Of a stretch of DNA of 64,000 nt, positions 10,283 through 59,177 are shown piece after piece. Where the stretch lies: contig CAWDTC010000012.1 in NCBI GenBank assembly GCA_963805045.1, forward strand, positions 64,211 through 128,210, in the 5' to 3' direction. The position numbers were made by a program, and so were the translations under genes. This DNA comes from Candidatus Aminicenantes bacterium. GTDB lineage: Bacteria; Acidobacteriota; Aminicenantia; Aminicenantales; Saccharicenantaceae. A model generated the notes under the pieces. That model worked only from the letters and a program-made list of their open reading frames with translations, searched no databases and was not told the origin of the DNA. Position 1 is the stretch's first letter, and every line of letters begins with the position of its first letter.

Positions 10283-11107
10283 TTATTTTAGTTCTCTTAT
10301 AGGTGACGGGGCGATATCCCAAAACAACTGAGCCGCCGCACAACGGCCCGTCATCGGATAGCGGGTAGAGCGTGAAAAGGAAATTCTAGCTATTCTCTTA
10401 GTCCACTCGTGCATCTTTTCGCCTTCGCCGGCGTACTGTTCTATTAATTGGCTATCCCGAATTTCCGCAGACGTCCGGAGTATATATGCAAACAAATCCG
10501 CGATTTGAGCTAGCAGAATGTGTTTTGAATCCGCGAAGAATGGTACATCAACAATTTGGTCAAGGGCAGTCTGGCCCTTTCCCCGATCATAGAAACTGTC
10601 TATCCACTTGGGCGGGTTATGGATGAGCTGGCTCAGACCAGCTTCTTCAGCAACCTCCCGATCAAAAATTAAAACGCTGTGACCTTTGGGCCTATCATCA
10701 CGCTGATGCTGCTTTTGGACTTGAAGAGTACAATGCATCGCAGCAATACACCAAGTTGACTTACACTCCTTGAGACGCTCGTCCTTACTCAACAATTCCT
10801 CATATTTGGCTTTGCTTATTCCGCTGAACACGCACTTATGCTTTCTTTTTTCGACCCAGCCAAGGATAGCCTCGATAATTTGTGCCCTCTTTGGGCCGTC
10901 CATACCGCGCCAAATACCGTTGCCTCTATAAAAATCACGGGAATGGAATTCGTCGACTTTTCGGCCAACCGTCCTCGAAAGGAGTTTTAGAAAATCAGCC
11001 CAGACGACTTTCGTTATATGCATCCTCTGCGCGTCTACTATGATGCCCGCCATTGTCAGATAGGGTTCGCTACCCATTCCGCTTTCGTCAAAATAACAGA
11101 ACTTCAT
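10283..11107 (-). CDS. DUF3800 domain protein
   Basis: Intact 274-aa ORF starting MKFCYFDESG, with a later FADSKHILLAQIADLFAY motif. It lies in a visibly AT-richer patch. Confidence 0.65.
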   Translation of the reverse strand: MKFCYFDESGMGSEPYLTMAGIIVDAQRMHITKVVWADFLKLLSRTVGRKVDEFHSRDFYRGNGIWRGMDGPKRAQIIEAILGWVEKRKHKCVFSGISKAKYEELLSKDERLKECKSTWCIAAMHCTLQVQKQHQRDDRPKGHSVLIFDREVAEEAGLSQLIHNPPKWIDSFYDRGKGQTALDQIVDVPFFADSKHILLAQIADLFAYILRTSAEIRDSQLIEQYAGEGEKMHEWTKRIARISFSRSTRYPMTGRCAAAQLFWDIAPSPIRELK

Positions 11108-11253
11108 GATTCCGCCCTTCTATTCGGCACATTAGCTCGCTCTTTTTGCCTTGATGTTAATTTGTGGTCGCCGATTCGTTTTGGGCCTCGTGAAGGGCTG
11201 CGCTTCTTATATCCGCCCTCTTTTGGTGGCAAGTTATTGCCACTCGCAAGTGA

Positions 11254-39994: not shown

Positions 39995-40107
39995 ATCGTC
40001 CTCCATTCAAGGCTTCTCGGAAGAGTGCCCGGTATCCCAGGATCCGCCGGACGGCGCAAAACCACCGTCCCTTATATATACGTTCCGGCCGGCCTTTCGT
40101 TCCGTTC

Positions 40108-41516: not shown

Positions 41517-41532
41517 GGGCGCGCTCCGTCTC

Positions 41533-42786
41533 TCATCCCGCGGGCAGGGTGACGAGGACCGTCGTCCCCTCGCCGGGCTTGCTCCGGACCTCGATCTCCC
41601 CGCCGTGCGACTTGACGATGCTGTAGCAGATCGAGAGGCCCAGCCCCGTCCCGCCCTTCTTCGTCGTGAAGAACGGGTCGAAGATCCTGTCCATGTTCTC
41701 CTCGGGGATGCCCTCGCCCGTGTCGGCGACGCGGACGAGGACTCTGGCCGCCGCCCGGCGAGACGACCTCGACCCGGAGCCTGCCGCCGCCCTCCATGGC
41801 CTGGATGGCGTTGAGGAAGATGTTGAGGAAGAGCTGCTTGACCTGGGACTTGTCGCCGTTGAGGAGGACCGGCGCCGGCCGGGAACGTCGTCTCGACCTC
41901 GACGCGCGGCGGCGCGGGCCTGGAAGGAGATGAGGGCCAGGCTCTCCTCGAGCGTCACGACGAGGTCGTGACTGCTCCTTCTTGATCTCGGACGGCCGGG
42001 AGAAGGAGAGCAGCGCGGCCAGGATCTCGTCGATGCGGTCGGTCTCCTGGAGGGCGACGTCGAGGAGCTTCTTCTCCGTCTCCTGCCGGCACTTGCTCTC
42101 CAGGTACTGGAGGGAGGACTTGATGGCCGTCAGGGGGTTCCGGATCTCGTGGGCGGCGCCGGCGGCGAGCTCGCCGATCGTCGCCAGCCGGTCGGCCCGC
42201 GATCATCCGGCGGAAGCGCTCCCGCTGCTCCTTGTAGAGGAGGGCGTTTTCCAGGGCGATGCCGGCCTGGGGGGTCAGGGACTCGATGAAGGCCGAGCTC
42301 GTGCTTCGGTGAACCTCTCCGCCGTCCCTCTTCGGCCCGGACGCAGAGGATGCCGATGAGCCGGTTCATGGAGAGGAGCGGGTAGCAGAGCTCGAAGCCG
42401 AAGGCCCGGAAGACGTCCTTCTCCCGGTCCTCGAGATAGTCGAAGACGCCGGGCTGGGCGCGGACGTCGAGGAAGGTCTTGTTGATCTTGAGCCACTTGG
42501 CCAGGCGGTCGTGGGGCGAGAAGGCGACGTGCCTGAGGAGGGCGTCGTCGAGGCCCAGGCAGGCGGAGAGGCGGAACTGGGCCAGGTCGTTGTCGTAGAC
42601 GAAGAAGGCCAGCCGGTCGACGGGCACCGACTCCTTGACCGTGCCCAGGAAGTTGAGGGCGACCTGGTCGTAGTCCTCGATGAGGTTGAGGCTCTCGGCG
42701 AACTCCCGGAAGATGAGCCGCGTCTCGCCCTCGGCGACCTTGCCGCGCGGCGAGGCGGTGGTGGAAGGACGGAAGAGCGCGCTCAT
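41533..42786 (-). CDS. cytoplasmic sensor histidine kinase (GAF-like N-domain, HisKA, HATPase_c), frameshifted
   Basis: [12 protein letters not shown] is the H-box. The ATPase end reads [32 protein letters not shown]. No TM helix was seen. It lies 16 nt upstream of the response regulator. Confidence 0.8.
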
Positions 42787-43010
42787 CTTTTCAGGCCTTT
42801 TCCGGGCGGAGAGGAAAGCCTCGCGCAACAGGATACAGCAAACCGGGGGAATTGTAAAAGGCGGAGGCTTGGGTAATTCGGGTAGCGCATTTCCCATAGT
42901 TGGGTAAGTCCAGTAACACCTGCGCGCATCTTTTTCCCGGTACGCCCGACCTCGGGCCGCCCTCGAGCTCCCATACTGCAATATTCGGGCCGAATTCCGA
43001 TAAGCAGAGC

Positions 43011-43050
43011 AAGAGGGACAGTCCCCTCCCGGGGGGACAGTCCCTACTCT
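43011..43050. repeat. palindromic element, family 3
   Basis: AAGAGGGACAGTCCCCTCCCGGGGGGACAGTCCCTACTCTT lies in the divergent intergenic region, about 80-110 bp upstream of the sigma-54 promoter. Confidence 0.7.
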
Positions 43051-43125
43051 TCCCAACGGATCGGGCAGGCCGAAAGCGGCTGTCCCCTCCACTCCCGTCA
43101 ACTAATTTTACAGGCGGCCGGCGGT

Positions 43126-43141
43126 TGGCACCGGACTTGCA
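43126..43141 (+). promoter_or_regulatory. sigma-54 (RpoN) -24/-12 promoter
   Basis: TGGCAC-CGGAC-TTGCA matches the TGGCAC-N5-TTGCW consensus exactly. It is 34 nt upstream of the ATG at 43175 (RBS GGAGG) and divergent from the NtrC-type activator operon. Confidence 0.75.
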
Positions 43142-43174
43142 GAAACGGAGGTTGACACGAGTGGAGGAACATCC

Positions 43175-44669
43175 ATGAAGATGCTGAAGATCGTCGCCAT
43201 CGCCCTGACCGTCCTCGTCCTGGCCTGGATCCTCGCGGCCCAGACCGTGCCCCAGGAGTCCCAGAGCATGAAGATCCTCAAGCTCAAGAGCGCCCAGCTC
43301 GCGCTCGAGCTGAGCAAGGCCGATTACGAAAGGTACCTCAAGCTCAAGGAGGACGGCCTGGCCTCTGAGGCCGACTTCGCGCAGCGGCAGACCGCCTACC
43401 TCCAGGCCCAGGTCGCCTACCAGCAGGCCTTCATCAGCTTCATGGGCAGCGAGGCCCGCATCTCGGTCGCCAGCGCGGTCAAGGTCCAGGACCGGAGCGG
43501 AAAGAAGTTCGTCACCGTCACGCTCCGCTACTCCTCGAAGGAGCTCAAGGAGCTGGCCAACCTCAAGATCAGCGCCGAGGACCTCTTCCCGCTCGACTTC
43601 ATGAAGGAGCTCAAGGACGTCTACGTCTCGCTCCTCTCGGAGGGCAAGATCATCTCCGACCCGTACGAAAGGGTCGTCAAGACGCTGCCCATCGAGTCGG
43701 AGCGCGAGGTCACCTTCCAGCTCCTCAAGGACGTCGAGAACCTCGAGGTCAGCGTCTCCTACTCGGGCAAGGAGGAGAAGACCTCCGTCTTCCTCCAGAA
43801 GGGCGTCAGCGCCAACATCGTCACCGTCAACTCGGCCCAGTTCTCGCAGGAGGCCGACCTCGAGGCCACGGCGACCTTCGACCTGTCGCTCGAGAAGTTC
43901 AGCGGCGAGGCCAACGTCTTCAAGCTCGAGGTGGCCAACCTGCCCCAGCAGATCACCTACGAGTTCTCCGACCCGACGACCCAGGCCCGCCTGTCGCAGA
44001 TCAAGTTCAGCGAGGGCGTGACGAGCCTCAAGCTCCAGCTCAAGCTCTACCTGCCGAAGAACCCGGACACGCAGGTCGTCCTCGACAAGCCGCTCGAGTT
44101 CTACGTCCTGGCCATGGACAACGACCAGACGGAGAAGCTCCGGGCGATCGAAAAGGCCAAGCCGGGCGCGGCCATCGAGGCCAAGGACATCGACGCCATC
44201 AAGGCCGGCTCGGCCCGGCTCGAGCTCATCCCGCGCGGCGTGCCCAAGGTCGAGGTCCAGGCCGTCAACCTCTACCACGAGATCAAGGTCGGCGAGACGG
44301 TCAGCATGGACGTCACCATCAAGAACACGGGGACGCGGAAGCTCAACAATATCAGGGTCTTCTGCGACCTGCCGCTCAACTGGCGGGTCGAGATCAAGCC
44401 CGACCTCATCGCCTCGCTCGGGCAGGACAAGGACGAGGTCGTCAACATCAAGTTCATCCCGCCGACGGACGTCTCGGTCGGCGACTACGAGCCCAAGATC
44501 CGGACGGATTCGGCGGCGGAGAACCGCAAGGTCGAGTCCGAGGACAAGATCGTCCGCATCCACATCACCTCGAAGACGAACGTCCTCGGCATCACGGTCC
44601 TCATCCTGCTCCTCGTCGGGCTGCTGGTCGGGCATCGTCGTCTTCGGCATCAAGCTGACCCGGAGATAG
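43175..44669 (+). CDS. membrane-anchored protein: adaptor-like alpha-hairpin plus NEW3/CARDB-like domain plus C-terminal TM anchor (COG1470-like); frameshift near the end
   Basis: N-terminal signal/anchor. LALELSKADYERYLKLKEDGLASEADFAQRQTAYLQAQVAYQQA resembles the coiled-coil hairpin of an efflux adaptor. VSMDVTIKNTGTRKLNNIRVFCDLPLNWRVEIKPD...VSVGDYEPKI matches the NEW3 pattern. The tail TM reads LGITVLILLLVGLLVG. Confidence 0.6.
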
Positions 44670-44677
44670 AGAAGAAT

Positions 44678-44715
44678 GGGGACATGTACCGAGGCGTGCC
44701 GAGGTACGTGTCCCC
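44678..44715. repeat. palindromic element, family 2
   Basis: GGGGACATGTACCGAGGCGTGCCGAGGTACGTGTCCCC lies between the first gene and permease 1. Confidence 0.8.
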
Positions 44716-44737
44716 TCTTGATAAAGGTAAGGTGACG

Positions 44738-46224
44738 ATGTTCGCCACGATCTTCAAGAAAGAGCTCCTGGACCAGATCCTCAGCCCCAAGTTCCTCATC
44801 GTCTCGCTCCTCTGCCTGGTCCTCATCCCGGCCAGCCTGCTCCTGAATTACTCGAGTTACCAGAGCGTCTTCCACGAATTCGACGCCTCCCAGAAGGAGG
44901 CCGCCTCGTCGACGACCATCTACAGGCGGCCGAGCGCCCTCTCGACGTTCGGCATCGGGCTCGAGAGCGTCCTGCCCGGCAAGGTCGCCTTCAGCAAGTA
45001 CGAGACGGACGCCAAGGGCCTCCAGGCCCAGAACGAGGTCCTGAGCCAGATCAACGGCAAGCTCGACTTCGTCGTCATCGTGAGCTTCCTGCTCGGCCTC
45101 TTCGCCATCCTCTACGCCGGGACGATGGCCAGCGGAGAGAAGGAGGCCGGGACCCTCAAGCTCGTCCTCTCGAACCCCGCCCGGCGGAGCACCGTGATCG
45201 GGGCCAAGTTCCTGGGCGGGTTCAGCGTGCTCATGATCCCCTTTGCCGTCAGCACGCTCATCGGCGTCCTGCTCCTCCTCTTCGAGGGGTTCCCGCTCTT
45301 CGCCGCCGGCAACCTGGGCCGGGTCCTGTCCCTCCTTCTCCTCTCCATGCTCTATCTCGCCGCCCTTTTCTCCCTGGGCCTGCTCGTCTCGACCCTGACC
45401 CACCGGACGAGCCTGGCGCTCCTGGCGAGCTTCTTCGTCTGGATCTTCCTGACCTTCGTCATCCCGAAGACGAGCGAGCCTTTGGCCGGCCTCATCCGCC
45501 GCATCCCGAGCGAGGAGGTCATGAAGGCCAACCGGACCCAGGTCCGTAACCAGATCGAGAAGGAGAAGGGCAAGGCCCTGGCGCCCCTGATGGAGAAATA
45601 CCTGCCCAACAGCGGACAGGGCAAATGGGACTGGGACGCCTACACGAAGGCCCGCGGGCCGGTGGCCAAAGAGTTTCGAGGAGCGGCTCGACCAGACCCT
45701 CCAGAAGTTCGACGCCGAATACGAGCAGAAGAAGAGCGCCCGGCGGGCCCTGAGCCTCAACATCGCCCGGCTGTCGCCGGCCTCGTCCTATACGCAGGCG
45801 GCGCTGAATTTCTGCCACACGGGGATCGCCGACCTCGAGAACTTCTCGAGGAGTCTCAAGGCCCACTACATCCTGCTCTACCAGGCCGTTTTCAGGTATT
45901 CGTTCCAGGACACGTTCACGTCCGAGGACGGCCATACCAACCGGTCCATGGGCGGGAGTTCGTCGCCGGAGGGCAAGAACGAGATCCCGAAGTTCCGCTA
46001 CCAGTTCCCGGCCTTCGAGGACACGCTGAAAAGCACGGCGCCGGACATCATCCTGCTCGTCCTCTTCAATTTGTCTTTTCGCCGCGGCTTATTATTCGTT
46101 CATCAGATACGACGTGCGCTAGGCGCTGAAGAGCACGGCGCCGGATATCATCCTGCTCGTTCTCTTCAACCTCGTTTTCTTCGCGGCGGCTTATTATTCG
46201 TTTATTAGATACGACGTGCGCTGA
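44738..46224 (+). CDS. ABC-2-type permease paralog 1 of 8, frameshifted; duplicated 3-prime end
   Basis: MFATIFKKELLDQILSPKF and ASGEKEAGTLKLVLSNP, with five or more further TM helices. LSPASSYTQAA and IPKFRYQFP. The proper C-terminus FIRYDVR is found only in the second copy of the terminal duplication. Confidence 0.7.
46024..46224 (+). repeat. tandem direct duplication (period 100 bp) of the 3-prime coding end of permease 1
   Basis: 46024-46122 and 46124-46224 align base for base with scattered substitutions and a 2-nt indel. Both end ...AGATACGACGTGCGCT(A/G)A. Confidence 0.85.
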
Positions 46225-46272
46225 GTCCGATAATGTACATACATTTGTACATATAGATTGGGGTGATACAGC

Positions 46273-47880
46273 TTGATCCGGACCATCGTCAAGCGCGAGT
46301 TCCTAGACAACCTCCTGTCCTTCAAGTTCATTGCGTGCGTCCTGGTCGCCATCGTCGTATCCCTGACGAGCACGGCGATTCTCACCCGCGATTATCAGGA
46401 CCGGCTGAGGAACTACGACAAGGGGTCGCCGCCGCTAAAGAAACTCTGACTAAAGTCCCCGTCTACTCCGCCCTTAAGGTCAAGCTGTTCCGGAAGCCTA
46501 CCCCCCTGAGCATTTTTGTGGCCGGGATCGAAAGAAAAGCTGGGAGCTACACCGAGATCCCGACGATGGAGATGGATATCCCCGTGTCGCTCAAGGGAGG
46601 TACTGCGAAGAACGAGTTCGCGGCGGTCTTTTCCATCTTCGACTTCTCCTCCGTCATCGTGATCATTTTCACGATCCTGGCCATCTTCCTATCCTACGAT
46701 GCGATTTCGGGAGAAAAGGAGGACGGGCTGCTTTCCCTGACCCTCTCGAATTCGGCGCCGCGCTCCAAGATCCTCCTCGGCAAGTACTTGGGAGCGCTGG
46801 CGTCCGTCGCGGTGCCCGTGGCATTATGCTTCATTCTCGGGACACTCTACGTCCTTTTCTCGAAGAACGTCGAAACGAACAGCCGATTCTTCATGTCCAT
46901 GGGATTGATCTTCTTCGCCGCCCTGCTTTATCTCTCCTGCATCTTGCTTCTGGGCCTCCTCGTTTCCTCCCGGACGAGGACCTCCTTTTCCAGCCTGCTG
47001 CTCCTTCTGGGCTTCTATATCGTCTTTTGCTTTCTTATTCCCCAGGCCGTCAAGAGCTATTCGGCCAATGCCATTGCCCGGCAGACGAGAAATGTCGAAA
47101 CCAATATCGAAAACCTGACCAATGAATGGGACAAAAAGCGCGGCGAGGTCCTGCACAAAGTCTCGTTTAAAAAGCAGTGGATCATCCCTCGCGACGCTTA
47201 TGATATGGAGCGTTACGGTGGGTATCATCCTCAATCGGATCAGCTCGCCGGAAGCCATAGAAAACCAGAATTTGACGACGTCCCTCATGATTCCGATGGA
47301 AAGGGAATACGCTCAGCGATTGTACGATTTGAAATTCAAGGATATTGCGGCCGAAGAGGGCATCCGCAACGAGGTGCATCAGTATTTAGCGTTCATCCCT
47401 TCGGCGAACTTCGGCCGTGTCGCAGGATTAATGGCCGACACGGCCGAGGATTCGGTAAGCCGTTACCTCCACGGTATCGCGGCGTACTGGAACCAATTCA
47501 TGCGTTACTTGGACGGGAAGGATGCCTTTGGTCTGAGGTTCGCATATCCGGGCCCGGATGAGCAGACTCCCTACGAGAGGGACATGGTCAAGAAGATTTC
47601 CGATGATTTCTCGAGGCTCGATAGGGATAAGGCCGTGACCTGGACCGGCCATTATGCCTTCTATCAGGGGAAGTTCTTACAGGAGGCTGTGAAGTATAGG
47701 CCCACGCTGAGTTTTCTCAACTTGGACGACCTGCCGGCGTTCGCCGCCCCTGAGCTCGGCCTAGCCGAGAGACTGCGTGGCACTTTGCTGAACGTCTTCA
47801 TCTTGGTCTTCGAGAATTTGTTGTTCTTCATCTTAGCCTATTTTTCTTTCTCCCGCTATGACCCGAGAAGGACCGATTAA
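46273..47880 (+). CDS. ABC-2-type permease paralog 2 of 8 (lower GC), frameshifted
   Basis: A TTG start gives (M)IRTIVKREFLDNLLSFKF. ISGEKEDGLLSLTLSNS and IPSANFGRVA. The C-terminus is FSRYDPRRTD. Confidence 0.65.
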
Positions 47881-47881
47881 G

Positions 47882-49324
47882 ATGCTTAAGGGCCTGCTGG
47901 GACGACAATTGAGCGAGGATATCCTCACCGCGAGGTTCTTTGTCAGCCTGGCCCTAATCCTGGGGGCGGTCTGCGCCTTTTCCTTAGTGTTTGCCGATCA
48001 GTATCATAGGTCCCAGGCCACCTATGCTGCGGCCGTGGCCAAGAACGATCGCGACCTTCAGCAATTCGCGACGTCGCCCGCGGGAAACCTGGGCTCTTCC
48101 ATGCAGACCTTTCTATTAAGGCCTAGACCTGAGTTATTCATTTCAGAAGGCGGCGAAAGCACGATGCCGCAGGGGCTCCTTTATGAGCCATACAATTACT
48201 CCCTGCAATTGTTGAGCCCGAAGGAGGAAGCCTTCGGCGCCCAGAACTACAGGTCCATCAGCAAGCGCGAAAGTCTCACCGATGTCCTGACGTATTCCCC
48301 CGACCTGATGTTCATCGTTCAAGTCCTGCTGAGCTTCTTCGCCCTGATCCTGGCCTATGGTGCCGTGACCGGCGAAAAAGAGAAGGGGACGTTAGGTCTC
48401 ATCTATTCCAACTCGATAAAACGGGGGCCTTTAATCCTGGCTAAGTATCTCAGCGCCCTCCTGACGGTCGGCATCTCTCTTTTTCTCGGCCTCATTTTAA
48501 GCCTTATCCTTCTCCACGTGTTGTCCGGAGCTCCGCTTTCTTCGTCCTTGATCTTCAGTTTTTTGCTCTTCCTCGTGGTTTCCCTCATCTATCTCTCCGT
48601 CTTCGTTCTCTTGGGGATTGCATGCTCGGTTCTCAGCCATAGGAGCAAAAACAGCCTGGTCCTTTGTCTTTTGGCCTGGGTCTTATTAGTGATTGTCTTC
48701 CCAAGATCAACAGGGATGCTCTTGACGCTCAAGCGCTTTGACGTGCCCACGGGAGAGGAAATCAACCAGTTGGCACAAAAGGCCTCTTATGAAACGGAGG
48801 ACCGGTTAGAAAAGCAGTTGCCACCTGAGTGGTCTCGCTTGGATTTTTCGAAGTATCGCCACAACGAGCTATTCCTAAAGCTACTATTCGCCTATGACAA
48901 GGCTCGTCAAGATGTCTTGGATTACTACCTGCGGAAGAAGCTCTCGGCCATCGAGGCCTCCAGGAAGATCAATTTCCTCTCTCCAGCGTCGCTTTTCGAG
49001 TACTCGGCGTCCTCGGTTTCGGGGACGGGGTTGGTCCATTTCGAGAACCTCTGGATGCAGTCCCAACGCTATGGTGATAGTTTCTTGTCATTTGTCAGGG
49101 ACGAGAGGAGCGTGCTTGAAAAAGGCGCCTTTTTTTATTTGGATAGCGACACGATCTCCGACAAGCCGCTCGACTTCAACGCCATCCCCAAGTTCGAGGA
49201 CCGGCTTCCCCCGGCTGCTGGCCGTCTCAAGGACGCACTTCCCTACCTTGGCCTCTTGGTTTTTTACAATCTCTTTCTTTTCGCTTTCGTCTTCTACAAA
49301 TTCCAAAGCTATGATGTTCGGTGA
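47882..49324 (+). CDS. ABC-2-type permease paralog 3 of 8 (lower GC), intact
   Basis: MLKGLLGRQLSEDILTARF, VTGEKEKGTLGLIYSNS, LSPASLFEYSA and IPKFEDRLP. It ends FQSYDVR. Confidence 0.75.
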   Translation: MLKGLLGRQLSEDILTARFFVSLALILGAVCAFSLVFADQYHRSQATYAAAVAKNDRDLQQFATSPAGNLGSSMQTFLLRPRPELFISEGGESTMPQGLLYEPYNYSLQLLSPKEEAFGAQNYRSISKRESLTDVLTYSPDLMFIVQVLLSFFALILAYGAVTGEKEKGTLGLIYSNSIKRGPLILAKYLSALLTVGISLFLGLILSLILLHVLSGAPLSSSLIFSFLLFLVVSLIYLSVFVLLGIACSVLSHRSKNSLVLCLLAWVLLVIVFPRSTGMLLTLKRFDVPTGEEINQLAQKASYETEDRLEKQLPPEWSRLDFSKYRHNELFLKLLFAYDKARQDVLDYYLRKKLSAIEASRKINFLSPASLFEYSASSVSGTGLVHFENLWMQSQRYGDSFLSFVRDERSVLEKGAFFYLDSDTISDKPLDFNAIPKFEDRLPPAAGRLKDALPYLGLLVFYNLFLFAFVFYKFQSYDVR

Positions 49325-49365
49325 AAAACGAATGTGCTTGCGTTTAAGGATAAATAAAAAAACCT

Positions 49366-49392
49366 GGGACACGTACCAGGGTACATGTCCCC
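49366..49392. repeat. palindromic element, family 2
   Basis: GGGACACGTACCAGGGTACATGTCCCC lies between permease 3 and the ATPase gene. Confidence 0.8.
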
Positions 49393-49412
49393 ATTAAGAG
49401 AGAGGAGGCCAC

Positions 49413-50156
49413 ATGGCAAAACCACAACCCATCCTGAAGACCGAGGACCTGTCCAAACGGTACGAGGACGGCGTCCTGGCGGTAGACCACCTGAACCTGA
49501 ACATCTACCCGGGTGAAGTCTACTGCCTGCTCGGGGCGAACGGCGCGGGGAAGACGACGACGATCAACCTCTTCCTCAACTTCATCCCGCCGACGACCGG
49601 GACCTGCTACGTCAACGGCATCGACGTCACCAAGGACCCGCTCGAGGCCAAGAAGTACGTCTCCTTCGTCTCGGAGAACGTCATGCTCTACGGGAACTTC
49701 ACGGCCCGCCAGAACCTCGACTTCTTCGCCAAACTCGGCGGCAAGACGGCCCTCGCGAAGAACGACTACTACCAGGTCATGCGCCGGGTCTCGCTCCAGG
49801 AGAAGGCCTTCGAGCAGCGGGTCAAGAACTTCTCGAAAGGCATGCGGCAGAAGCTCGGCATCTCGATCGCCGTGATCAAGGACGCGCCGGGGATCCTGCT
49901 CGACGAGCCGACCTCGGGCCTCGACCCCAAGGCGGCCGAGGAGTTCCTGGAGATCCTGGGCGAGCTCAAGAAGGAAGGCAAGGCCATCCTGATGTCGACC
50001 CACGACATCTTCCGGGCGAAAGAGATCGGCGACCGGGTCGGGATCATGAAGGAAGGGCGCCTGGTCATGGAGCGGACGCGCGAGGAGCTCCAGTACGAGG
50101 ACCTGGTCAAGATCTACATCGACTACATGAAGTCCGAGCCGCTGACGCTCCAATAA
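49413..50156 (+). CDS. ABC transporter ATP-binding protein (ABC-2/CcmA-type), intact
   Basis: Walker A GANGAGKTTT, signature FSKGMRQKL, Walker B ILLDEPTSGLD, H-loop STHD. Confidence 0.9.
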   Translation: MAKPQPILKTEDLSKRYEDGVLAVDHLNLNIYPGEVYCLLGANGAGKTTTINLFLNFIPPTTGTCYVNGIDVTKDPLEAKKYVSFVSENVMLYGNFTARQNLDFFAKLGGKTALAKNDYYQVMRRVSLQEKAFEQRVKNFSKGMRQKLGISIAVIKDAPGILLDEPTSGLDPKAAEEFLEILGELKKEGKAILMSTHDIFRAKEIGDRVGIMKEGRLVMERTREELQYEDLVKIYIDYMKSEPLTLQ

Positions 50157-50223
50157 GCGCCAGGGGACATCGCAGGCCCGTCTCCAATGCGGGGCCGGCT
50201 CGGCCAGCCCGGAGACGATCGCC

Positions 50224-51666
50224 ATGCTGAAAACAATCATCAAGAAAGAAGTGCTGGAGACCGTCTTCAGCTACCGTTTCCCGCTCTTCGCCGTCATCTG
50301 CCTCCTCCTCATCCCGCTCGGGATGACCGTCAACCACGCGAACTACGCCAAGCGCGTCCGGGACTACAGCGAGCAGGTCCGGCTCGCCGACGAGGCGGCC
50401 TCGGCCATCAAGATCCAGGACGTCATGGCCGGGACCGTGGCCATCAAGGGGTTCCGCCGCCCCGCCCCGCTCTCCGTCTTCACCCAGGGCTTCGAGAGCA
50501 CGCTCCCCCGCTATTACGAGTTCACCCAGGACGGTTTCAAGCCGGGCGAGTCGGCGAGCGACGACGAATCGATCCTCTCGGTCCAGGGCAAGGTCGATTT
50601 CGTCTTCCTCGTCCAGATGGTCATCAGCCTCATCGCCCTGCTCTTCGCATCCGACATGATCTCGGGCGAAAAGGAGTCGGGGACGCTGCGGGCCATGCTG
50701 GCCAACAGCCTGCCGCGCGACACGCTCCTCGCCGGCAAGATCGGCGGCGGCTATCTCGCGCTGTGGGTCCCGTTCCTCGTCGCCTTCCTGGCCGGGGCCG
50801 TCGTCCTCATGCTCGCTGCCTTCCCGCTCTTCGCCGGAGGGACGGCCGGCCGCGTCCTCCTCATCTTCCTGGTCACGTCCCTCTTCGTCCTGACGTATTT
50901 CACGATCGGCATCGCCGTCTCGACGAGCACGGCCAAGGCCCGGACCTCGCTCGTCGCGATCCTCATCATCTGGGCCGCCTTCCAGCTCATCATCCCCAAG
51001 CTCGGGGACATGGCGGCGCGCCTCATCCACCCGGTCCGGACGGAGACCGAGGTCTCGCTCCAGAAGTCGCTCCTCGTCCGCTCGCTCGACATGGACCAGG
51101 CCAAGGAGCTCGGCCGCCAGTACGACCTCATCTTCGGCGCGGCCCCCAAGGGCGCCGCGGACGACGAGAAGTCGCCGGAAAGGAAGAAGTGGGACCCGCT
51201 CCGCGACGACATCCAGCGGCAGGCCCGGGAGAAGAAGAGCCAGCAGCTCGCGGCCATCGACGAGACGTACGCCCAGGAGAGGCGGCGCCAGCTCGACCTC
51301 GCCGTCGACCTCTCGCTCGTCTCGCCGAGCGCGGCCTTCGCACGGCTCCTCGCCGACGTCTGCGGCACGGGCGAGCTCGAGCGGGCCAAGTACCTCGAGG
51401 CCGTCCGGGCCCACCAGAAGGCCCTCGACAACGAGCTCTTCAGCAAGGTCAAGCGGATCCTCATGATCCACGAGGGCGGGGGCATGTCGATGTCGTTCTC
51501 GGCCATGCCGGTGGACGCATCGAAGCTGCCGAAGTTCACGATCACGCCGGCGACGATGGCGGAGGCATTCAAGGCGAACGTGCGGAGCCTCCTCTCGCTC
51601 CTCTTCTGGCTCGTGGCGCCCTTCGCCTTCGCCTACGCCAGGTTCATCAAGTACGACGTGAGGTGA
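50224..51666 (+). CDS. ABC-2-type permease paralog 4 of 8, intact
   Basis: MLKTIIKKEVLETVFSYRF, ISGEKESGTLRAMLANS, VSPSAAFARLL and LPKFTITPA. It ends FIKYDVR. Confidence 0.75.
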   Translation: MLKTIIKKEVLETVFSYRFPLFAVICLLLIPLGMTVNHANYAKRVRDYSEQVRLADEAASAIKIQDVMAGTVAIKGFRRPAPLSVFTQGFESTLPRYYEFTQDGFKPGESASDDESILSVQGKVDFVFLVQMVISLIALLFASDMISGEKESGTLRAMLANSLPRDTLLAGKIGGGYLALWVPFLVAFLAGAVVLMLAAFPLFAGGTAGRVLLIFLVTSLFVLTYFTIGIAVSTSTAKARTSLVAILIIWAAFQLIIPKLGDMAARLIHPVRTETEVSLQKSLLVRSLDMDQAKELGRQYDLIFGAAPKGAADDEKSPERKKWDPLRDDIQRQAREKKSQQLAAIDETYAQERRRQLDLAVDLSLVSPSAAFARLLADVCGTGELERAKYLEAVRAHQKALDNELFSKVKRILMIHEGGGMSMSFSAMPVDASKLPKFTITPATMAEAFKANVRSLLSLLFWLVAPFAFAYARFIKYDVR

Positions 51667-51684
51667 AAGAGGAGGCGCCGCGCC

Positions 51685-53022
51685 ATGCTAAAAACGATCA
51701 TCAAGCGCGAGATCCTCGAATACCTGAAATCGGCCAGGTTCCTGATCGGCCTCGGCATCACCCTGGCCCTGGCGGCCGGCAGCACGGTCCTCAACGTCCA
51801 GGATTATAAGGGGCGCCTGCAGGACTACCAGTCCGCCCTGCAGGAACTGAAGAGCGACCGTTTCTACATCCGCCTTTACCGCCAGCCCCAGGTCCTCAGC
51901 ACCCTCATCCAGGGCAAGGACCGCAAGCTCGGCAACAGCATCATGTTCACCTACCTGCGGCCTCCCGGCCACGACCTCGGGCTACATGGGCGAGGGACGG
52001 AGCCAGCCCCAGCGCCTCGTCTCCGGCTTCGCGGCCGTCGATTTCGCTTTCATCGTCCGGGTCGTGCTCAGCCTGCTCGTCGTCTTCATCGCCTACAACG
52101 CCGTGGCCGAGGAGAAGGCCTCGGGGACCCTGAAGCTGACCCTGGCCAACCGGGTGCCTCGGGACCAGCTCCTGCTCGGCAAGTTCCTGGGCGGCTGGTT
52201 CGTCATCATGGGCTCGCTCGCCGTCTCCGCCCTCGTCTCCCTGATCATCGTCCTCTCCCATTCCTTCATCGCCTTCGCCGCCGGCGAATGGACCCGCCTC
52301 CTCGCCTTCATCGGGCTCTCCGCCGTCTACCTCACGGTCTTCTACGCGGTCAGCCTGTTCGTATCGGTCCTGGTCGACAGACCCTCCATCTCCCTGATGA
52401 TCCTGCTCCAGGCCTGGGTCTTTCTGATCGTCATTTATCCCAACCTGGGCGTCATCGCCGCGGAGAACCTGACCAGGCTCCCGTCCCAGGAGCAACTCGC
52501 CCAGCAGAAGAACGCGGCCTTCCAGCCCTACGCGGCGGAGCAGAAGAAGACCCAGGAGGCGTTCATCCAAGCCGTCCGCACGGGAGGGGGGATCTCAAAG
52601 GAGCTCGGCGTGCGCAACGTCGAGATCTGGGCCAAGCGGGCCGAACTCGACCACCAGGTCGATGAGGAATACGGCCGGAAGCTCACCGCCCAGACGAACC
52701 TCGCCCGAGCCATCTCACCCTCTCGCCGGCCGTCCTCTTCGACCAGGCCGCCGAGCGGCTCGGCCGCACGGGGATGGCCGAGTACGAGCGCTTCATGCGG
52801 GAGGTCTACCGCTGCTGGCAGCAGGACGTCGAGCGGTCGAAGCTCATGTATACGGACCGCGAAGCTTACAAGAAGGCGCCGCCCCTCGATTTCCGCGTCC
52901 CGGTCGAATCAACCTCCGAGGCCTTCGCCGCGACCTGGCTCGACTGGTTCCTCCTCGCTTTCTTCGGGCTGGCCCTTTTTGCCCTGGCCTATACGGCCTT
53001 CCTGAGAAAGGACGTGAGGTGA
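51685..53022 (+). CDS. ABC-2-type permease paralog 5 of 8, frameshifted
   Basis: MLKTIIKREILEYLKSARF and VAEEKASGTLKLTLANR. After a shift, LSPAVLFDQAA. It ends FLRKDVR. Confidence 0.7.
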
Positions 53023-53026
53023 GGCC

Positions 53027-54428
53027 ATGAGAACGATCATCCGGAAAGGAGCTCCTGGATCACCTGAGAAGCGTCCAGTTCGCCGTCCTCCTCGCGGCGA
53101 GCGTTCTCCTGTTCGCCGCGAACGGGCTCGTCTTCGTCCAGCAATACACCCGGCTCAACGCCGAGTACCGTCTCCATGTCGCGCAGGAGGAGCAGCACCC
53201 CAGCACGGTCGGGACCTCGCTCTACAGGTCCCCGAACCCCCTCCTGTTCATGGCCGAAGGGGGAGAGAAATCGGTCCCGCAGGGATACGGGCTGAGCCCC
53301 AAGCTGACCCTCTCGCCTTTCCCCGCCGGGACCACGAATTTCAAAATGCCGGACATCCCGGAGCTTGATTGGGCCTTCATCGTCAAGATCGTTTTCAGCC
53401 TGTACGTGATCCTCCTCGGGTTCGAGGCCGTGTCGGGCGAGAAGGAGCGCGGCACGCTCCGGCTGGTGCTGTCCAATCCGGTCGGCCGGTTGAGACTGCT
53501 GACGGGGAAGTATCTCGCAGTCATGGCGAGCGCCGCCATCCCTCTCGCCGCCGGCCTCCTCATCAGCGTCATCGTCATCGGCATCTTCCTCCCGGGCGTG
53601 ATGGGCGCCCAGAACGTGGTGCGCATCGTCTTCTTCTTCGTCCTCGCCCTGGCCTACCTGTCCCTGTTCGCGTTCATGAGCCTTCTCCTGTCCTCGCTCA
53701 TCCCCCGTTCCTCGCTCGTCCTCCTCGTTCTCCTGGCTTTCTGGATCTTCTCCGCGTTCTTCATCCCCGACACGTCGAGCATCATCGCCCAGAGATTCTC
53801 GAAGGTCCCGAGCGAGTACGCGATGGCCAAGCTCCTCGGGCCGACCATGCAGAAGCGAGGTCTTAAGCCGGATCGCGGTCATCGGAGACGGATCCAGAAA
53901 GGCGAGCTCAAGACCGAAAAGGACGTTCTGGAGGAGTCCGACCGCGCCTTCGAAGAGGGCCAGGACAGCGTCCGCAAGCTCTATGACGACTATGAAAATG
54001 CCATGCGGGAGCGCGCCGATCTAGCCCAGCGGATCTCGCGCGCCTCGCCGGCGGCCCTTTTCCAGTACGCCGCCGAGGCCGTCTCCGGGACCGGGCCGAA
54101 CGCGGAGTCCCGGTTCCTCAGGGACGTCAGGAACTATTCCAGGACCTACGATGACTATATCCTCAAGAAGGTGGGGAAGGTCGTCGGCACGTCGCCCTGG
54201 AGCTTCTCGACCGGGGCGACGCTCAACGGCAAGTACATCAACCTCCAATCGCCCTTTCCCCAGGAATACTCGGGGGACAAATCGGATTTCCCGAAATTCT
54301 CGGAGAGCCGGCCGTCGCTCGTCGACGGCCTTCACGACGGCCTGTGGGACATCGCCGGCCTGCTCGTCTGGAACATTCTGCTGGCCGGGCTGGCGTTTTC
54401 GGCCTTCTTGAGGACGGACGTGAGGTGA
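53027..54428 (+). CDS. ABC-2-type permease paralog 6 of 8, one frameshift at codon 8
   Basis: After correction it reads MRTIIRKELLDHLRSVQF. VSGEKERGTLRLVLSNP, ASPAALFQYAA and FPKFSESRP. It ends FLRTDVR. Confidence 0.75.
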
Positions 54429-54433
54429 AATAT

Positions 54434-54462
54434 GGGGACATGTACCTAGGGTACGTGTCCCC
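54434..54462. repeat. palindromic element, family 2
   Basis: GGGGACATGTACCTAGGGTACGTGTCCCC followed by GATTTAGGAGG, between permeases 6 and 7. Confidence 0.8.
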
Positions 54463-54479
54463 GATTTAGGAGGAGGCCC

Positions 54480-55733
54480 ATGACCTGGACCATCGCCCGC
54501 AAGGAGATCGCCTCGAACCTCCTGAGCTATAAGTTCTTCGTCGTCCTCCTCCTCATCGTCCTCCTCGTCGCCACGAGCCTGTTCATCATGCACCGCGACT
54601 TCAAGAGCCGCATGGCCGATTACCAGGTCAACCGGCCCAAGCCCGGCGATCCGATGGCGCTCGTCGCCCCCACCCCCTTGTCGATCTTCGCCAAGGGCCT
54701 CGACGACGCCATGACCCGCTCCTTCGAGGTCGCGGTCATCGGCATCACCGTCCGGGCCGGGCAGGCCTCGGGCAACATCATCTATTCCTTCTTCCCCGCG
54801 CCCGACTTCCTCTACGTCGTCCGGGTCGTCCTCTCGCTCGTCGCCCTCCTCTTCGGCTTCGACCAGGTCAGCCGCGAGCGCGAGCAGGGGACGCTGAAGC
54901 TCCTCCTGGGAAGCTCGATCTCCCGGGCCAAGGTCCTCGCCGGCAAGTGGATCGGGAACTTCCTGAGCCTGGCCGTTCCGTTCCTCCTGGTGACGCTGAT
55001 CGGCCTCCGCCCTCCTCTCGCTCGACCCGGACGTCCATTTCTCGGCCGGCGAGCTCGGGCGCCTCGCCCTGATCCTGGGCCTCTCCCTGCTCTACCTGGG
55101 GTTCTTCCTCAGCCTGGGGATTCTCGTCTCGACGCTGACAAAACGGGCCGCGACCTCCGTCGTCGTCCTCCTCTTTCTCTGGGCGCTCTTCGTCTTTGTC
55201 ATCCCGAACCTCGGCACGCTCGTGGCCCGGCAGTTCGTCGCCGTCCCCTCGGTCCGGGCCCTGTCCGAAAAGCAGGAGCAGGCGTGGACGCGGGAGGTCC
55301 TCCTCGGCATCAGCAAGGGCGGGAACTGGGCAGACCACATGCGGACGCTGAGCGCCGAGGACGACCGGATGGCGCAGGACTACCGCTTGAAGTTCGAGCG
55401 GCTGGTCCGGCTCTCCCGGAACATCAACCGTGTTTCGCCCGCGGCCAGCTTCCTTGACGCGGCGAGCGAGATCGCCGGCACGGGCATCGGCGAGGAGACA
55501 CGCCTCAAAGGGGACGTCGTCCGCTACAAGGACTCGATCATCGACCGAATGATCGCCGACGTCGACGCCAGGAAGCGGGACGCGCAGTACCCGGCCTTCA
55601 CCTACAAGCCGCGGCCGCTGGCCGAGATCTTCGCCGCCGGGCGCCCTCTTCGACACGGCCTGGCTCGCCTTTTTCAACATCCTGGCCGTTCGCCCTGGCC
55701 TACGTTGCTTTCGTCCGCTACGACGTGAGGTGA
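54480..55733 (+). CDS. ABC-2-type permease paralog 7 of 8, frameshifted
   Basis: MTWTIARKEIASNLLSYKF, VSREREQGTLKLLLGSS, VSPAASFLDAA and YPAFTYKPRP. After correction it ends FVRYDVR. Confidence 0.7.
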
Positions 55734-55737
55734 GGCC

Positions 55738-57170
55738 ATGATGAAGACGCTCATCACCAAGGAGGTCCGGGCCAACTTCCTGTCCTTCCGGTTCCTGGCG
55801 AGCTTCGTCATCCTCTTCGTCGTCGTCGCCGTCACGGCCCTCGTCCTGGCCGGCGACTACACGCGGAAGCTCGACGAGTATTCCCAGCGCCAGGCCGAGC
55901 TCGAGCGATACCTCCGGAGCTACGCCCATTTCAACCGGATCGGCAACATCGTGACGCCGACGCAGCCGCCCATCCCCTTCCAGGCCCTCGTCCGGGGCCT
56001 GACGGCCGACGTCAACATGGAGGGCTTCGACGACGACCCCCTGCCGGTCATGTTCCCGCTCATCGACCTCGTCTTCATCGTCACCATCCTCATCAGCCTC
56101 ATCGCCCTGATCCTCTCCTACGACGCCGTCTGCGGCGAGAAGGAGGACGGGACGCTGAAGCTGATGCTCTCGAACGGCCTGCGCGCGGTCGAAGATCGTC
56201 CTGGCCAAGCTCGCCGGCGGCGTCGCTGACCCTGGCCGCGCCGTTCCTCGTTTCGCTCGCGACGGGCATGCTCATCATCCTCCTCCACCCGCGGGTCAGC
56301 TGGACGGGCGCGGATTGGGGCGCTCTCGGGCTCATCGTCGCCGGGGCGCTGCTCTACATCGCCGTCTTCTATCTCATCGGCATCTTCATCTCGTCAGCCC
56401 ACAGGTCGAGCGCCTCGTCGATCATGACCTCGCTCTTCGTCTGGGTCCTTCTCGTCCTGGTCGTGCCCAACCTCAGCCCTTACGTTGCTTCGTTCCTCTC
56501 GCCGGCGCCGTCGCGGATCAAGGTCGCACGGGAGGTGCAGCGTCTGACGGACACCGACCGGGACGACTCGGGGAGAAGCTCATGGACCAATACCGGGGCG
56601 AGGTCCTCAAGCAGTACCCGGTTCTTGCCGAGCGGCTGACGGAGAACGAGGTCAAGGCCAGGGTCGCCGCGGACCCCGAATACCGAAAGGCCTACGAGGC
56701 CATGCGGGCGGCCGTCGAGAGGGCTTGGGAGGAGGCCAACCTGACTCCAGAGCGCCAAGGCCGACGCCCTGAACGAGGACCTCAGCCGCAAGGAGACGGC
56801 CCAGACGGGCCTGGCCCGGTCGATCTCCATGGCCTCGCCGCTCGCCGATTTCAGCTATCTCGCGACAGACCTGTCTTCGACCGGGACGGAGAACATGGCC
56901 CACTTCGGGCGGATCGGCGCGGCCTGGGACCAGGCCTTCTTCCGGGAATACCAGCCGAAGAAGATGGCTGAATTGAAGGCGAAAGACCCGACGGCGGACC
57001 TGTGGAATACGGCCATCGACATGACCGATGCCCCGCGGTTCCGCTACGTCGAAGAAGGGCTAGGCGGTCGTGTCAAGGCGGCGCTCCCGCCATTCGCAGT
57101 GCTTCTCGGCTATTGCGTCGTCTTGTTCGCGGCGGCCTACGTCGCCTTCATCCGCTACGACGCCCGCTGA
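55738..57170 (+). CDS. ABC-2-type permease paralog 8 of 8, frameshifted
   Basis: MMKTLITKEVRANFLSFRF, VCGEKEDGTLKLMLSNG, ASPLADFSYLA and APRFRYVEE. It ends FIRYDAR. Confidence 0.7.
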
Positions 57171-57178: not shown

Positions 57179-58564
57179 TCAGTGCCGCCTCCGGCGCTCC
57201 TCCACGATCCGCTCGTACTCCAGCGGGTGGAGCGTCCGGAGCTCCCGCCCGGTGATCTTTCCGTCGAGCCAGGTCATGCTCATGGGGAAGTCCTCGGGGT
57301 TGAGGTGGACGTTGTACATGTGCCAGATGATGACGGCCAGGAAGGCGAGCAGCGCCTCGTAGCTGTGGACGACGATGAAGATGTTGTGGACCCAGAGGGG
57401 GAAGAGCCGCAGGGAGAGGTCGACGCGCCACATGAAAAAGCCGCTCACGATCATGACCGCCGAGCCCCAGCCGACGGCCCAGTATTCGAACTTCTCGACG
57501 AAATTGTAGCGGTCGTAGCGGGGCGCCGCCTCGAACAGCCAGTAGGGATGCCCGGCGAAGAACTTCTTCCCGATGCCCAGCCGCCGGGCGAGCCGCGTGA
57601 CGCCGAGGTTGTGGAAAAGCTGCTCGAAGGCGTCGCGGAAATCCCTCGTGCGCGGGACCATGGCCCTGAAATTCGCCCGCCCCCGCGCCGTGAAGATGGT
57701 GTATGCCGCATTCCAGACGAGATTCAGGACGAGGACGACGGCCACGACCCTGTGCAGGACGCCCCGCACGCCCGAGCCCTGCCCGCCCGGCAGGAGCCAC
57801 GCGAGGGGCTTGAACCCGGAGAGGAAGAGGGGCAGGCCGGTAGCCATGAGGGTGAAGAGGGTCAGGATGAGGAGCCCGTGCTGGACGCGCTCCGAAACGC
57901 CCATCCGGACGAAGACCGCGTCGTCCCCCGGGACGTCCGGGCCGCAGACGCGGCCGCCCGCGGCCCTTCTCCGGACCGCCCGGCCGAAGAGGTCGGCGGC
58001 GATGAACAGCAGGAAGGCGCCGACGATGACGGCGATGACGACGCCGTAGACCGACCGGACGACGAGCGGAGCCCGGCCCGCGACCCCGGCCGCCCCTTCC
58101 GGCCGGCTGTGAACCCTCCCCTGGGCGAAGTGTGCCGTCGCGCCGGGGTGGCATCGGCCGCAGGTCCGCGGCAGGTTGGCCGGGAAGGTCGGCGAGGCGG
58201 GGTCCGACGCGCCGAGGACGTCGTGGGTCCCGTGGCAGTCCTTGCACGCGACCGGCGGGCCGCTCCTCCCCGCGGCCGTCCCGCCGTGGACGCCCGCCGT
58301 GTACATCCGGGTCTCCCGGCCGTGGCAGGCGGCGCAATTCACGGCGGCGAGCTTTTCGGGATGGGGGAATTCCCTGAGCGCCTTGAGGTCGGCGTGGCAG
58401 TCGACGCACCCGACCCCCGCCCGCCCGTGGACCGAGGCCAGGAGCGCCGGCCCCTGGTCGGCGTGGCAGGCCAGACACTCGGTGTCCCGCGCCACGGCCC
58501 CGGCTGCGGCCGCGGTCTTCGTCTGGGCCGGGGCGAACGCGAAGCTCAGCGACAGAAGGAACAA
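57179..58564 (-). CDS. fusion of a pentahaem c-type cytochrome domain to a membrane dihaem cytochrome b domain (FdnI/HydC-like; CbcL-like quinol oxidoreductase)
   Basis: Five CxxCH motifs (CLACH, CVDCH, CAACH, CKDCH, CGRCH) are followed by four or five TM helices with conserved His (VQHGLLIL, VLHRVV, IVVHSYEALLAFLAVIIWHMYNVH). The start is uncertain, because the signal-like sequence continues upstream of the TTG. Confidence 0.75.
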   Translation of the reverse strand: MFLLSLSFAFAPAQTKTAAAAGAVARDTECLACHADQGPALLASVHGRAGVGCVDCHADLKALREFPHPEKLAAVNCAACHGRETRMYTAGVHGGTAAGRSGPPVACKDCHGTHDVLGASDPASPTFPANLPRTCGRCHPGATAHFAQGRVHSRPEGAAGVAGRAPLVVRSVYGVVIAVIVGAFLLFIAADLFGRAVRRRAAGGRVCGPDVPGDDAVFVRMGVSERVQHGLLILTLFTLMATGLPLFLSGFKPLAWLLPGGQGSGVRGVLHRVVAVVLVLNLVWNAAYTIFTARGRANFRAMVPRTRDFRDAFEQLFHNLGVTRLARRLGIGKKFFAGHPYWLFEAAPRYDRYNFVEKFEYWAVGWGSAVMIVSGFFMWRVDLSLRLFPLWVHNIFIVVHSYEALLAFLAVIIWHMYNVHLNPEDFPMSMTWLDGKITGRELRTLHPLEYERIVEERRRRH

Positions 58565-58658
58565 GACGGCGGAGACAAGGATGAGGGCGCCGAGGGCGGG
58601 CGCGGCGCGCCCCGCAGGTCCACGCTTCGCGGTCCGGGTGTCCGGGCTCGTCGGTCGA

Positions 58659-59177
58659 TCAGCCTTTCGGGATGGGGTGCTTGATCTTCGCCCAGCCGGC
58701 GTCGGTGTCGAAGACCTTGCCGTGGTCGGTCACGTGGCACCTCTGGCAGCCCGCCTTCAGCTTCTCGGGGGTGCCGTAGAGGACGAGCCCGCTCTTGACG
58801 GCGGCGTCCTTGTCCTTCATGACGGCGAGCTTCCGGTATTCGCTCCCGGGCCCGTGGCAGGCCTCGCAGCCGACGCCCTCGGCCTTGAGGTCAGGGGCCT
58901 TGGCGGCGAGAGGGGCGTGGCAGGCGAGGCAGGACGGGCTCTCGGCGGCGGGCGTCGTCAGGCCGGACTGCTTGGCGAGCTCGGCGGCCGCGGCCGTCCC
59001 CAGCGTCTCGAAGGACTTGGCGTGGGCGCTCGCCTCCCAGATCGGGAATTGCCGTCCCTGCGTCTCCGTCCTGTGACAGATCTGGCACTTCTGGGCGCCG
59101 ACGTAGCTGAACTCCTGGGTCAGGGCCGCCGAGGCGACGACGGCGGCGAGGGCGATGACGAAGAGCGTTTTCTTCAT
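58659..59177 (-). CDS. periplasmic tetrahaem cytochrome c (cytochrome c554-like family)
   Basis: Intact 172-aa ORF with a signal peptide and CQICH, CLACH, CEACH and CQRCH. Confidence 0.8.
   Translation of the reverse strand: MKKTLFVIALAAVVASAALTQEFSYVGAQKCQICHRTETQGRQFPIWEASAHAKSFETLGTAAAAELAKQSGLTTPAAESPSCLACHAPLAAKAPDLKAEGVGCEACHGPGSEYRKLAVMKDKDAAVKSGLVLYGTPEKLKAGCQRCHVTDHGKVFDTDAGWAKIKHPIPKG

Follow-up and report, generated by a model that had tools for sequence, protein, structure and literature searches.

Why should a bacterium carry eight divergent genes for the membrane subunit of an ATP-binding cassette (ABC) transporter around a single gene for its ATPase? The question is raised by positions 44738 to 57170 of a 64-kb stretch of contig CAWDTC010000012.1 from a Candidatus Aminicenantes assembly (the window, to which coordinates refer unless another locus is named), whose best protein matches are metagenome-assembled genome (MAG) proteins named Candidatus Aminicenantes or Aminicenantales. 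A family profile search of the window detected exactly eight permease genes (P1 to P8), and a search with the ATPase protein found no second ATPase gene in it, showing that the eight permeases have one ATPase gene among them. In our best model, to which we give a probability of about 50%, the permeases form alternative dimers that have a single ATPase, a single adaptor, and a single outer-membrane channel in common.

All of these genes lie on the plus strand, with the ATPase gene (49413 to 50156; 247 aa; PF00005, 92.7 bits), 96% identical to its orthologues, inside the array between P3 and P4. The first block comprises P1 (44738 to 46122; 460 aa after two frame corrections; clade I), P2 (46273 to 47880; 534 aa with a TTG start; two corrections), and P3 (47882 to 49324; 480 aa; intact). 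The second comprises P4 (50224 to 51666; 480 aa; intact; clade I), P5 (51685 to 53022; 444 aa; two corrections), P6 (53027 to 54428; 465 aa; three corrections), P7 (54480 to 55733; 416 aa; three corrections), and P8 (55738 to 57170; 475 aa; four corrections). After frame correction, the eight products range from 416 to 534 aa and are only 20 to 32% identical to one another.

The arrangement of these genes points to pairs. In the window, the spacers measure 1 to 4 nt within the pairs P2/P3, P5/P6, and P7/P8 and 18 to 150 nt between them, and the related loci with which we compared the window (labeled L001, L003, L004, etc.) differ from one another by whole adjacent pairs. The order P1-P2-P3-ATPase-P4-P5-P6-P7-P8 of the window becomes P1-P2-P3-ATPase-P4-P5-P6-X-Y-P7-P8 in L003, with ten permease genes, and P1-ATPase-P4-P5-P6-X-Y-P7-P8 in L001, from which P2/P3 is absent. 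The X/Y pair, found between P6 and P7 in L001, L003, and L004, is missing from the window. Several other Aminicenantes loci carry only P4, P7, and P8, while in L010 P4 is followed directly by P1. P4 is the most widespread of the eight groups among the relatives. The units of difference are thus P2/P3, X/Y, and P5/P6, and the comparison of gene orders shows that permease genes have been gained and lost as pairs.

A second line of evidence comes from hidden Markov models (HMMs) trained on the first (A) versus the second (B) genes of two-gene loci from other phyla. These models class P1, P2, P4, and P7 as A, P3 and P8 as B, and, weakly, P5 as A and P6 as B. Outside the training loci, adjacent genes separated by no more than 30 nt are ordered A to B in 29 cases and B to A in 3.

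The original prediction held that the array is old rather than the outcome of a recent amplification, and proposed a test for conserved positions of the paralogs in other genomes. Each of the eight does have positional orthologues in other Aminicenantes, at about 70 to 96% identity as opposed to the 20 to 32% between paralogs (P1 is 94 to 96% identical to P1 of L003); in terms of distance, orthologues are 0.04 to 0.5 apart and paralogs more than 1.4 on the same scale. The paralogs are therefore old. As a description of the array itself, however, "old" has to be qualified, given that its composition varies by whole pairs among close relatives and that one pair has a foreign-looking base composition. 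In the window, L003, and L004, the GC content at third codon positions (GC3) is 0.61 to 0.69 in P2/P3 and approximately 0.8 to 0.96 in the remaining genes. Overall GC in the same three genomes is 0.53 to 0.54 for this pair (at positions 6095 to 9129 in L003 and L004) versus 0.62 to 0.66 for the other operon genes. The atypical GC3 together with the absence from L001 suggests that P2/P3 is a later-acquired pair, possibly obtained by horizontal transfer. Most of the window has a GC content of about 63 to 73%. A second low-GC stretch is located at positions 10001 to 12000 (0.568, against about 0.68 for the window).

The proteins themselves belong to a family that is already catalogued. All eight pass the gathering cutoff of PF12679 (ABC2_membrane_2; 27.2 bits), with scores of 109.5 (P1), 90.3 (P2), 88.6 (P3), 113.9 (P4), 89.4 (P5), 102.8 (P6), 108.4 (P7), and 121.6 (P8) bits. 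A second family, PF12040 (DUF3526; cutoff, 25 bits), maps to the insert between transmembrane (TM) helices 5 and 6. Only P4 (28.2 bits) and P6 (39.7 bits) pass its cutoff, the match covering the second helix of a hairpin plus the SPxxxF region described below; P1 (24.5 bits) and P5 (24.7 bits) fall just under it, and P2, P3, P7, and P8 have no match. No NCBIfam equivalog was approached by any of the permeases, and the GldF model TIGR03518 yields 22.5 to 23.9 bits against a cutoff of 288.5, i.e., they are not members. Relatives are annotated generically, as ABC-2 or "multi-copper enzyme maturation" permeases. The original prediction had allowed that this might prove to be a well-described Pfam family of known stoichiometry and function. 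PF12679 and PF12040 do catalogue it; neither family, however, comes with a function or a stoichiometry, and we found no publication on PF12679/PF12040, this cluster, its multi-paralog arrays, or the association of a NEW3 domain (see below) with an ABC transporter. What is unusual is thus not the family but the predicted periplasmic insert, the partners, and the gene dosage.

Alignment and hydropathy confirmed that the eight genes share one architecture, and all the motifs listed in the original prediction are visible in the eight-way alignment. These are an N-terminal TIxK(K/R)E, a (S/C/T)GEKExGTL motif with degenerate forms in P5 (AEEKASGTL) and P7 (SREREQGTL), SP(A/S)xxF followed by TG, P(K/A/R)F, and the C-terminal tail (R/K/S)(Y/K/T)D(V/A/P)R. 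When 143 relatives drawn from many phyla are aligned, giving a consensus that ends in FLRYDVR, the positions conserved in at least 90% of sequences are E9, P80, G89, D125, E149, E151, G153, T154, L155, R165, K172, S233, W250, P258, S367, P368, F474, and D478. This conservation far exceeds chance expectation, and the motifs are family traits rather than peculiarities of the array.

For P4, an AlphaFold2 (AF2) model was computed from an alignment built from database matches (pLDDT, 80.7; pTM, 0.72). The model has six TM helices. An N-terminal amphipathic helix (residues 2 to 15) precedes TM1, a single helix that starts at 18 and runs on to residue 60. Loop 1 contains a small beta-sheet, with strands between residues 74 and 107, and is followed by TM2 (126 to 152), a short helix after the GEKESGTL motif (154 to 160), TM3 (165 to 197), TM4 (207 to 235), and TM5 (239 to 268). 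The insert that follows is modeled as a long helical hairpin (274 to 304 and 318 to 364), a helix (368 to 380) bearing the SPSAAF motif (366 to 372), a further helix (384 to 404), and a beta-hairpin (409 to 427), after which TM6 (453 to 476) closes the chain. The hydropathy profiles of all eight permeases fit an arrangement of 1+4+1 TM helices in which 137 to 247 aa separate TM5 from TM6. The helix count originally proposed, one plus about five plus one, thus holds for the last helix and needs correcting before the insert, which is preceded by TM1 plus four, for a total of six.

Foldseek searches with the P4 model returned NosY chains as the top matches (TM-score 0.72 to 0.75, normalized to NosY) and no match covering the insert. 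NosY is also the sole solved relative detected by sequence, with an E value of 0.013 for P4 alone and 1.6e-16 for the family profile. By model and hydropathy together, the permeases are predicted to be type-V (NosY-like) ABC-2 membrane subunits, the fold having been modeled for P4 and the hydropathy of the others being consistent with it.

Five TM helices precede the insert, and the N-terminal interface helix is expected to be cytoplasmic, as it is in NosY, which predicts a periplasmic location for the insert. Of the two locations left open in the original prediction, cytoplasmic or periplasmic, the former is hence disfavored, with both termini on the cytoplasmic side. Among orthologues, N-terminal halves are more conserved than the halves containing it (in P8, 92.6% versus 70%). 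A search of 1.84 billion cluster representatives with the insert only returned 81 matches, and nearly all of those about 400 aa or longer aligned at about residues 265 to 450; since the insert diverges too fast for single-sequence searches, this number provides no estimate of family size.

NosY works as a single-copy homodimer with one separate ATPase and a periplasmic partner. The likeness to NosY of the NosDFY(L) copper-delivery ABC machine (PDB 7o0y and related entries) lies in the six-TM type-V ABC-2 fold and extends to two of the motifs, an N-terminal amphipathic motif, which in NosY reads WNIARKELSDGL, and the G-E-x-E-x-G-T-L after TM2, in NosY AYDAIVGEDEGGTL. Both stand at the same places in the two proteins, so that these motifs cannot be called distinctive of the array. 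The insert and the tail fare differently. The NosY of a reference nosDFYL operon has 276 aa, a TM5-TM6 loop of about 55 aa, and ends in ...LLFRRRAT, compared with 416 to 534 aa, a gap of 137 to 247 aa, and the YDVR tail in the permeases studied here; as originally proposed, the latter two features are absent from NosY, and they are subfamily traits kept across many phyla. The gene neighborhoods differ too. The cluster lacks nosD, nosL, and nosZ and contains instead genes for a NEW3 protein, an outer-membrane efflux protein (OEP), and a sigma-54 two-component system, and no called gene of the orthologous clusters matched the NosD or NosL families, which places it outside NosDFY. We also considered SPxxxF as the counterpart of LNPADVY in NosY; this is plausible by eye, but hhalign aligned only TM2 to TM5, and the correspondence is a conjecture.

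Two of the partners just mentioned would belong to the periplasm and the outer membrane. Immediately upstream of P1, on the plus strand, positions 43175 to about 44700 encode a membrane protein with a NEW3/NPCBM_assoc domain (PF10633; E value, 5.5e-11), whose gene is frameshifted at the 3' end, the open reading frame (ORF) continuing into P1. PF10633 was matched by all 28 NEW3 homologues scanned. In the AF2 model of a 96%-identical orthologue, an N-terminal TM helix (2 to 22) and a C-terminal one (470 to 496) enclose beta-rich domains and a confidently modeled hairpin (30 to 59 and 65 to 90; pLDDT, about 78 to 88) comparable in length to the shorter helix of the permease hairpin. Residues 27 to 85 of the NEW3 protein give weak matches to the membrane-fusion hairpin region of CzcB/RND_mfp. 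From the predicted structure, the NEW3 protein is a candidate doubly anchored, adaptor-like partner. The outer-membrane component would be the product of the gene at 38437 to 39994 (minus strand; one frameshift near 38748), a TolC-like OEP that is 75 to 84% identical to its L001 orthologue, the product of which carries PF02321 (OEP); a TolC-family protein is thus encoded together with the transporter.

These components resemble the tripartite ABC efflux systems MacAB-TolC and YbhGFSR, in which an ABC ATPase and permeases with periplasmic extensions likewise occur with a hairpin periplasmic protein and a TolC-family OEP. The differences are in the permease fold, here NosY-like, whereas MacB is of the FtsX type and YbhR/S are ABC2_membrane_3 proteins with a large loop between TM1 and TM2; in the candidate adaptor, which instead of HlyD-family domains has a NEW3 Ig-like domain plus a second TM anchor; and in dosage, one ATPase gene being accompanied by as many as ten permease genes. 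The gliding-motility ABC system GldA/GldF/GldG, which also combines an ABC-2 permease with one ATPase, includes an accessory periplasmic protein TM-anchored at both ends; in addition to the low TIGR03518 scores, the array differs from it in that no ABC_transp_aux (GldG) match was found on the NEW3 protein.

The regulatory genes also form part of the cluster. A sigma-54-dependent response regulator (Response_reg, Sigma54_activat, and HTH_8 domains; 40114 to 41516; two frameshifts) and a GAF-HisKA-HATPase histidine kinase (about 41536 to 42786; at least two frameshifts) lie with the OEP gene on the minus strand, upstream of the array. In the opposite, divergent direction, the sigma-54 promoter consensus TGGCACCGGACTTGC is present at 43126 to 43140 (plus strand), 35 nt upstream of the NEW3 gene start; this exact match to TGGCAC-N5-TTGC is the only one in the 64-kb window. 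In about 15 related loci, the motif is found again a short distance upstream of the NEW3 or OEP gene, about 10 of them having an exact copy and the others a copy with one mismatch. With an activator gene adjoining the cluster, we infer that its expression would be sigma-54 controlled and that the NEW3, ATPase, and permease genes would form one operon. GGGTAA/GGTAAC repeats read from the sequence at 42870 to 42917 (plus strand), also present in L001 and L003, are a candidate enhancer site for the adjacent activator. Upstream of the promoter there are, in addition, two copies of the palindrome GGGACAGTCCC, at 43015 to 43044; none was seen in L001, and L003 has only a relative with two mismatches. 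Finally, the spacer after P1 contains the AT-rich motif TGTACATA-N4-TGTACATA (46234 to 46253; no strand assigned), for which zero occurrences are expected by chance in the window. Similar motifs occur after P1 in L003 (about 5965 to 5990) and L001 (about 9080 to 9105), and the motif may bind a regulator or serve as an internal control element.

Does the same combination recur elsewhere? We inspected 78 loci from Aminicenantes, other Acidobacteriota, Ignavibacteriota, Bacteroidota, Rhodothermales, Gemmatimonadota, Latescibacterota, Poribacteria, Planctomycetota, Zixibacteria, and others, a sample that is biased since the loci were chosen by similarity to P4. The recurrent cluster consists of a kinase and a response regulator (often divergent), often an OEP, a NEW3 protein, an ATPase, and 1 to 10 permeases. 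Fifty of the loci, representing many phyla, span 15 kb or more; of these, 39 have the ATPase, 33 NEW3, and 23 the kinase. NEW3 is present in all 16 loci with an OEP gene. Two permease genes are the commonest number, and 14 of the 50 loci have five or more. No conserved cargo or accessory gene was found in arrays of other phyla, where ORFs in the gaps are mutually unrelated or lineage specific (e.g., sugar-nucleotide enzymes, or a coiled-coil protein limited to two sampled Poribacteria loci). In these two, L038 (6156 to 7334 and 9147 to 10028) and L041 (10643 to 11698 and 13195 to 14067), paralogous secreted coiled-coil proteins are interspersed among the permeases, as stop-to-stop ORFs of about 290 to 390 aa lacking any Pfam match; nothing similar occurs in the window.

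Conjointly, these observations can be accommodated by a machine with interchangeable membrane parts. In this model, P2/P3, P5/P6, and P7/P8 would form heterodimers, P1 and P4 would combine as a pair or each form a homodimer, and the same ATPase dimer would power every permease dimer. The permease hairpin would project into the periplasm, where the dimers would couple to the TolC-like channel via their own hairpins and that of the NEW3 protein, with substrates being exported or passed on across the envelope. Specificity for a substrate or partner would reside in the periplasmic inserts, which diverge fast. Going further, one might tentatively see here a new class of envelope-spanning ABC machine, in which coiled-coil hairpins of NosY-like permease dimers and a doubly anchored NEW3 adaptor dock a TolC-like channel in the outer membrane and the ATPase is shared by up to ten exchangeable modules, some horizontally acquired, that diversify specificity. 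Such a class would be widespread in Acidobacteriota, the Fibrobacteres-Chlorobi-Bacteroidetes (FCB) group, Gemmatimonadota, Planctomycetota, and candidate phyla. We hold this broader proposal to be well short of an even chance.

Several observations weigh against the shared-ATPase model. Its dimer partners are inferred from gene order alone, and no clean, deep A/B split emerged when it was looked for. In a group-to-group distance and hhalign matrix, X and Y are mutually closest, and these two group loosely with P1 and P4; the pairing therefore rests on gene order, spacers, presence/absence patterns, and the weaker HMM contrast. Nor is one shared ATPase universal, since L053 has a second ATPase gene within its permease array (11515 to 12255 and 15054 to 15794) and in L011, L015, L050, and L052 an additional ATPase gene adjoins a permease gene or pair that stands apart. 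An OEP gene lies within 10 kb in only 16 of the 50 loci. As to the adaptor, the NEW3 protein and its 28 homologues match none of the HlyD/MFP (membrane fusion protein) Pfam families, and the AF2 model of the orthologue is poor overall (pLDDT, 60). Lastly, we found no paper mentioning DUF3526.

The strongest competitor, which we judge possible though unlikely, is that the system is a mechanotransducer and not an exporter. ATP hydrolysis would move the periplasmic hairpins and thereby drive a partner in the periplasm or outer membrane, here the NEW3 protein, with the different pairs serving different clients, as in NosDFY, GldAFG, LolCDE, and FtsEX. The closest solved relative being NosY speaks for it, since NosY acts together with periplasmic NosD and is not a transmembrane solute pump. 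So does the NEW3 protein, which in the AF2 model is anchored at both ends, like GldG, and which accompanies the permeases more often than the OEP does (33 versus 16 of the 50 loci). On the other hand, the OEP gene in the window cluster and in those 16 loci points to passage through the outer membrane, and the cluster has no NosD, NosL, or GldG family matches.

A single large hetero-oligomeric complex of all permeases around the ATPase has less in its favor. The presence of eight genes on one strand behind the only exact sigma-54 consensus of the window, together with one ATPase gene, would fit such an assembly. However, copy number varies from 1 to 10 among the relatives, with two the commonest, and whole pairs are missing from close relatives whose other genes are intact, which fits dispensable modules better. 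Moreover, known ABC transporters have two TM domains per two nucleotide-binding domains. We consider this arrangement improbable and the exchangeable dimers of our best model the better account.

Last, the condition of the genes had to be assessed, and each window gene was compared with an intact orthologue by frameshift-tolerant protein-to-DNA alignment. Only P3 and P4 are uninterrupted ORFs, whereas P1, P2, P5, P6, P7, and P8, six of the eight, are broken, with 19 frame corrections of 1 to 2 nt each within 12.4 kb. Over the region from 38437 to 57170, a 1- to 2-nt indel occurs about once per 650 to 700 nt. The neighboring OEP, regulator, and kinase genes are interrupted at a density similar to that of the array, and every orthologue in L001, L003, and L004 was called as a full-length ORF; errors of sequence or assembly are therefore the most likely origin of the indels, which would then not mark pseudogenes. 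That the array is instead decaying, with real frameshifts, most copies pseudogenes, and just P3 and P4 functional, is suggested by the broken genes and yet very improbable given, besides the broken neighbors and intact orthologues, that protein identity to the orthologues stays high past each shift (94% in P1 after the first) and that the related MAG loci L006, L015, L037, and L050 are comparably fragmented. The indel density suggests an error-prone assembly, so that any ORF-based reading of the window needs frame correction, and the motifs of the original prediction had, with six genes frameshifted, been read across frames.

A different irregularity affects the P1|P2 junction. The last approximately 100 nt of P1, stop codon included, are repeated in tandem, the second copy occupying 46124 to 46224 (plus strand) in frame after the first stop codon. 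The blocks of this duplication (46024 to 46224) are 93% identical and 100 to 102 nt apart; Tandem Repeats Finder missed it, and another repeat search found it. The 3' end of P1 is present only once in L001 and L003. The duplication could be a recombination scar at the junction or an assembly artifact. At its other end, the array converges with minus-strand genes at 57179 to 59177 for a cytochrome b (Ni_hydr_CYTB-like) fused or adjacent to multiheme cytochrome c genes, with a small cytochrome containing several CxxCH motifs in the same interval. These neighbors are also present in L003 and L004 and are probably unrelated to the transporter.

The NosY-type ABC-2 transporters described so far are mostly single homodimers, each dedicated to one task. 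The subfamily analyzed here would have gained a long periplasmic hairpin and recruited an outer-membrane channel and an unusual adaptor-like protein; its gene pairs behave as plug-in modules, with as many as ten permease genes for one ATPase gene. If the shared-ATPase model is true, sharing would let one efflux or handover machine widen its specificity at little cost in genes, and it would give a function to DUF3526 and to many "NEW3 domain-containing" hypothetical proteins, which occur frequently in uncultured bacteria from soils and sediments. The putative sigma-54 promoter beside its cognate two-component system provides a regulatory handle that would make induction experiments feasible.

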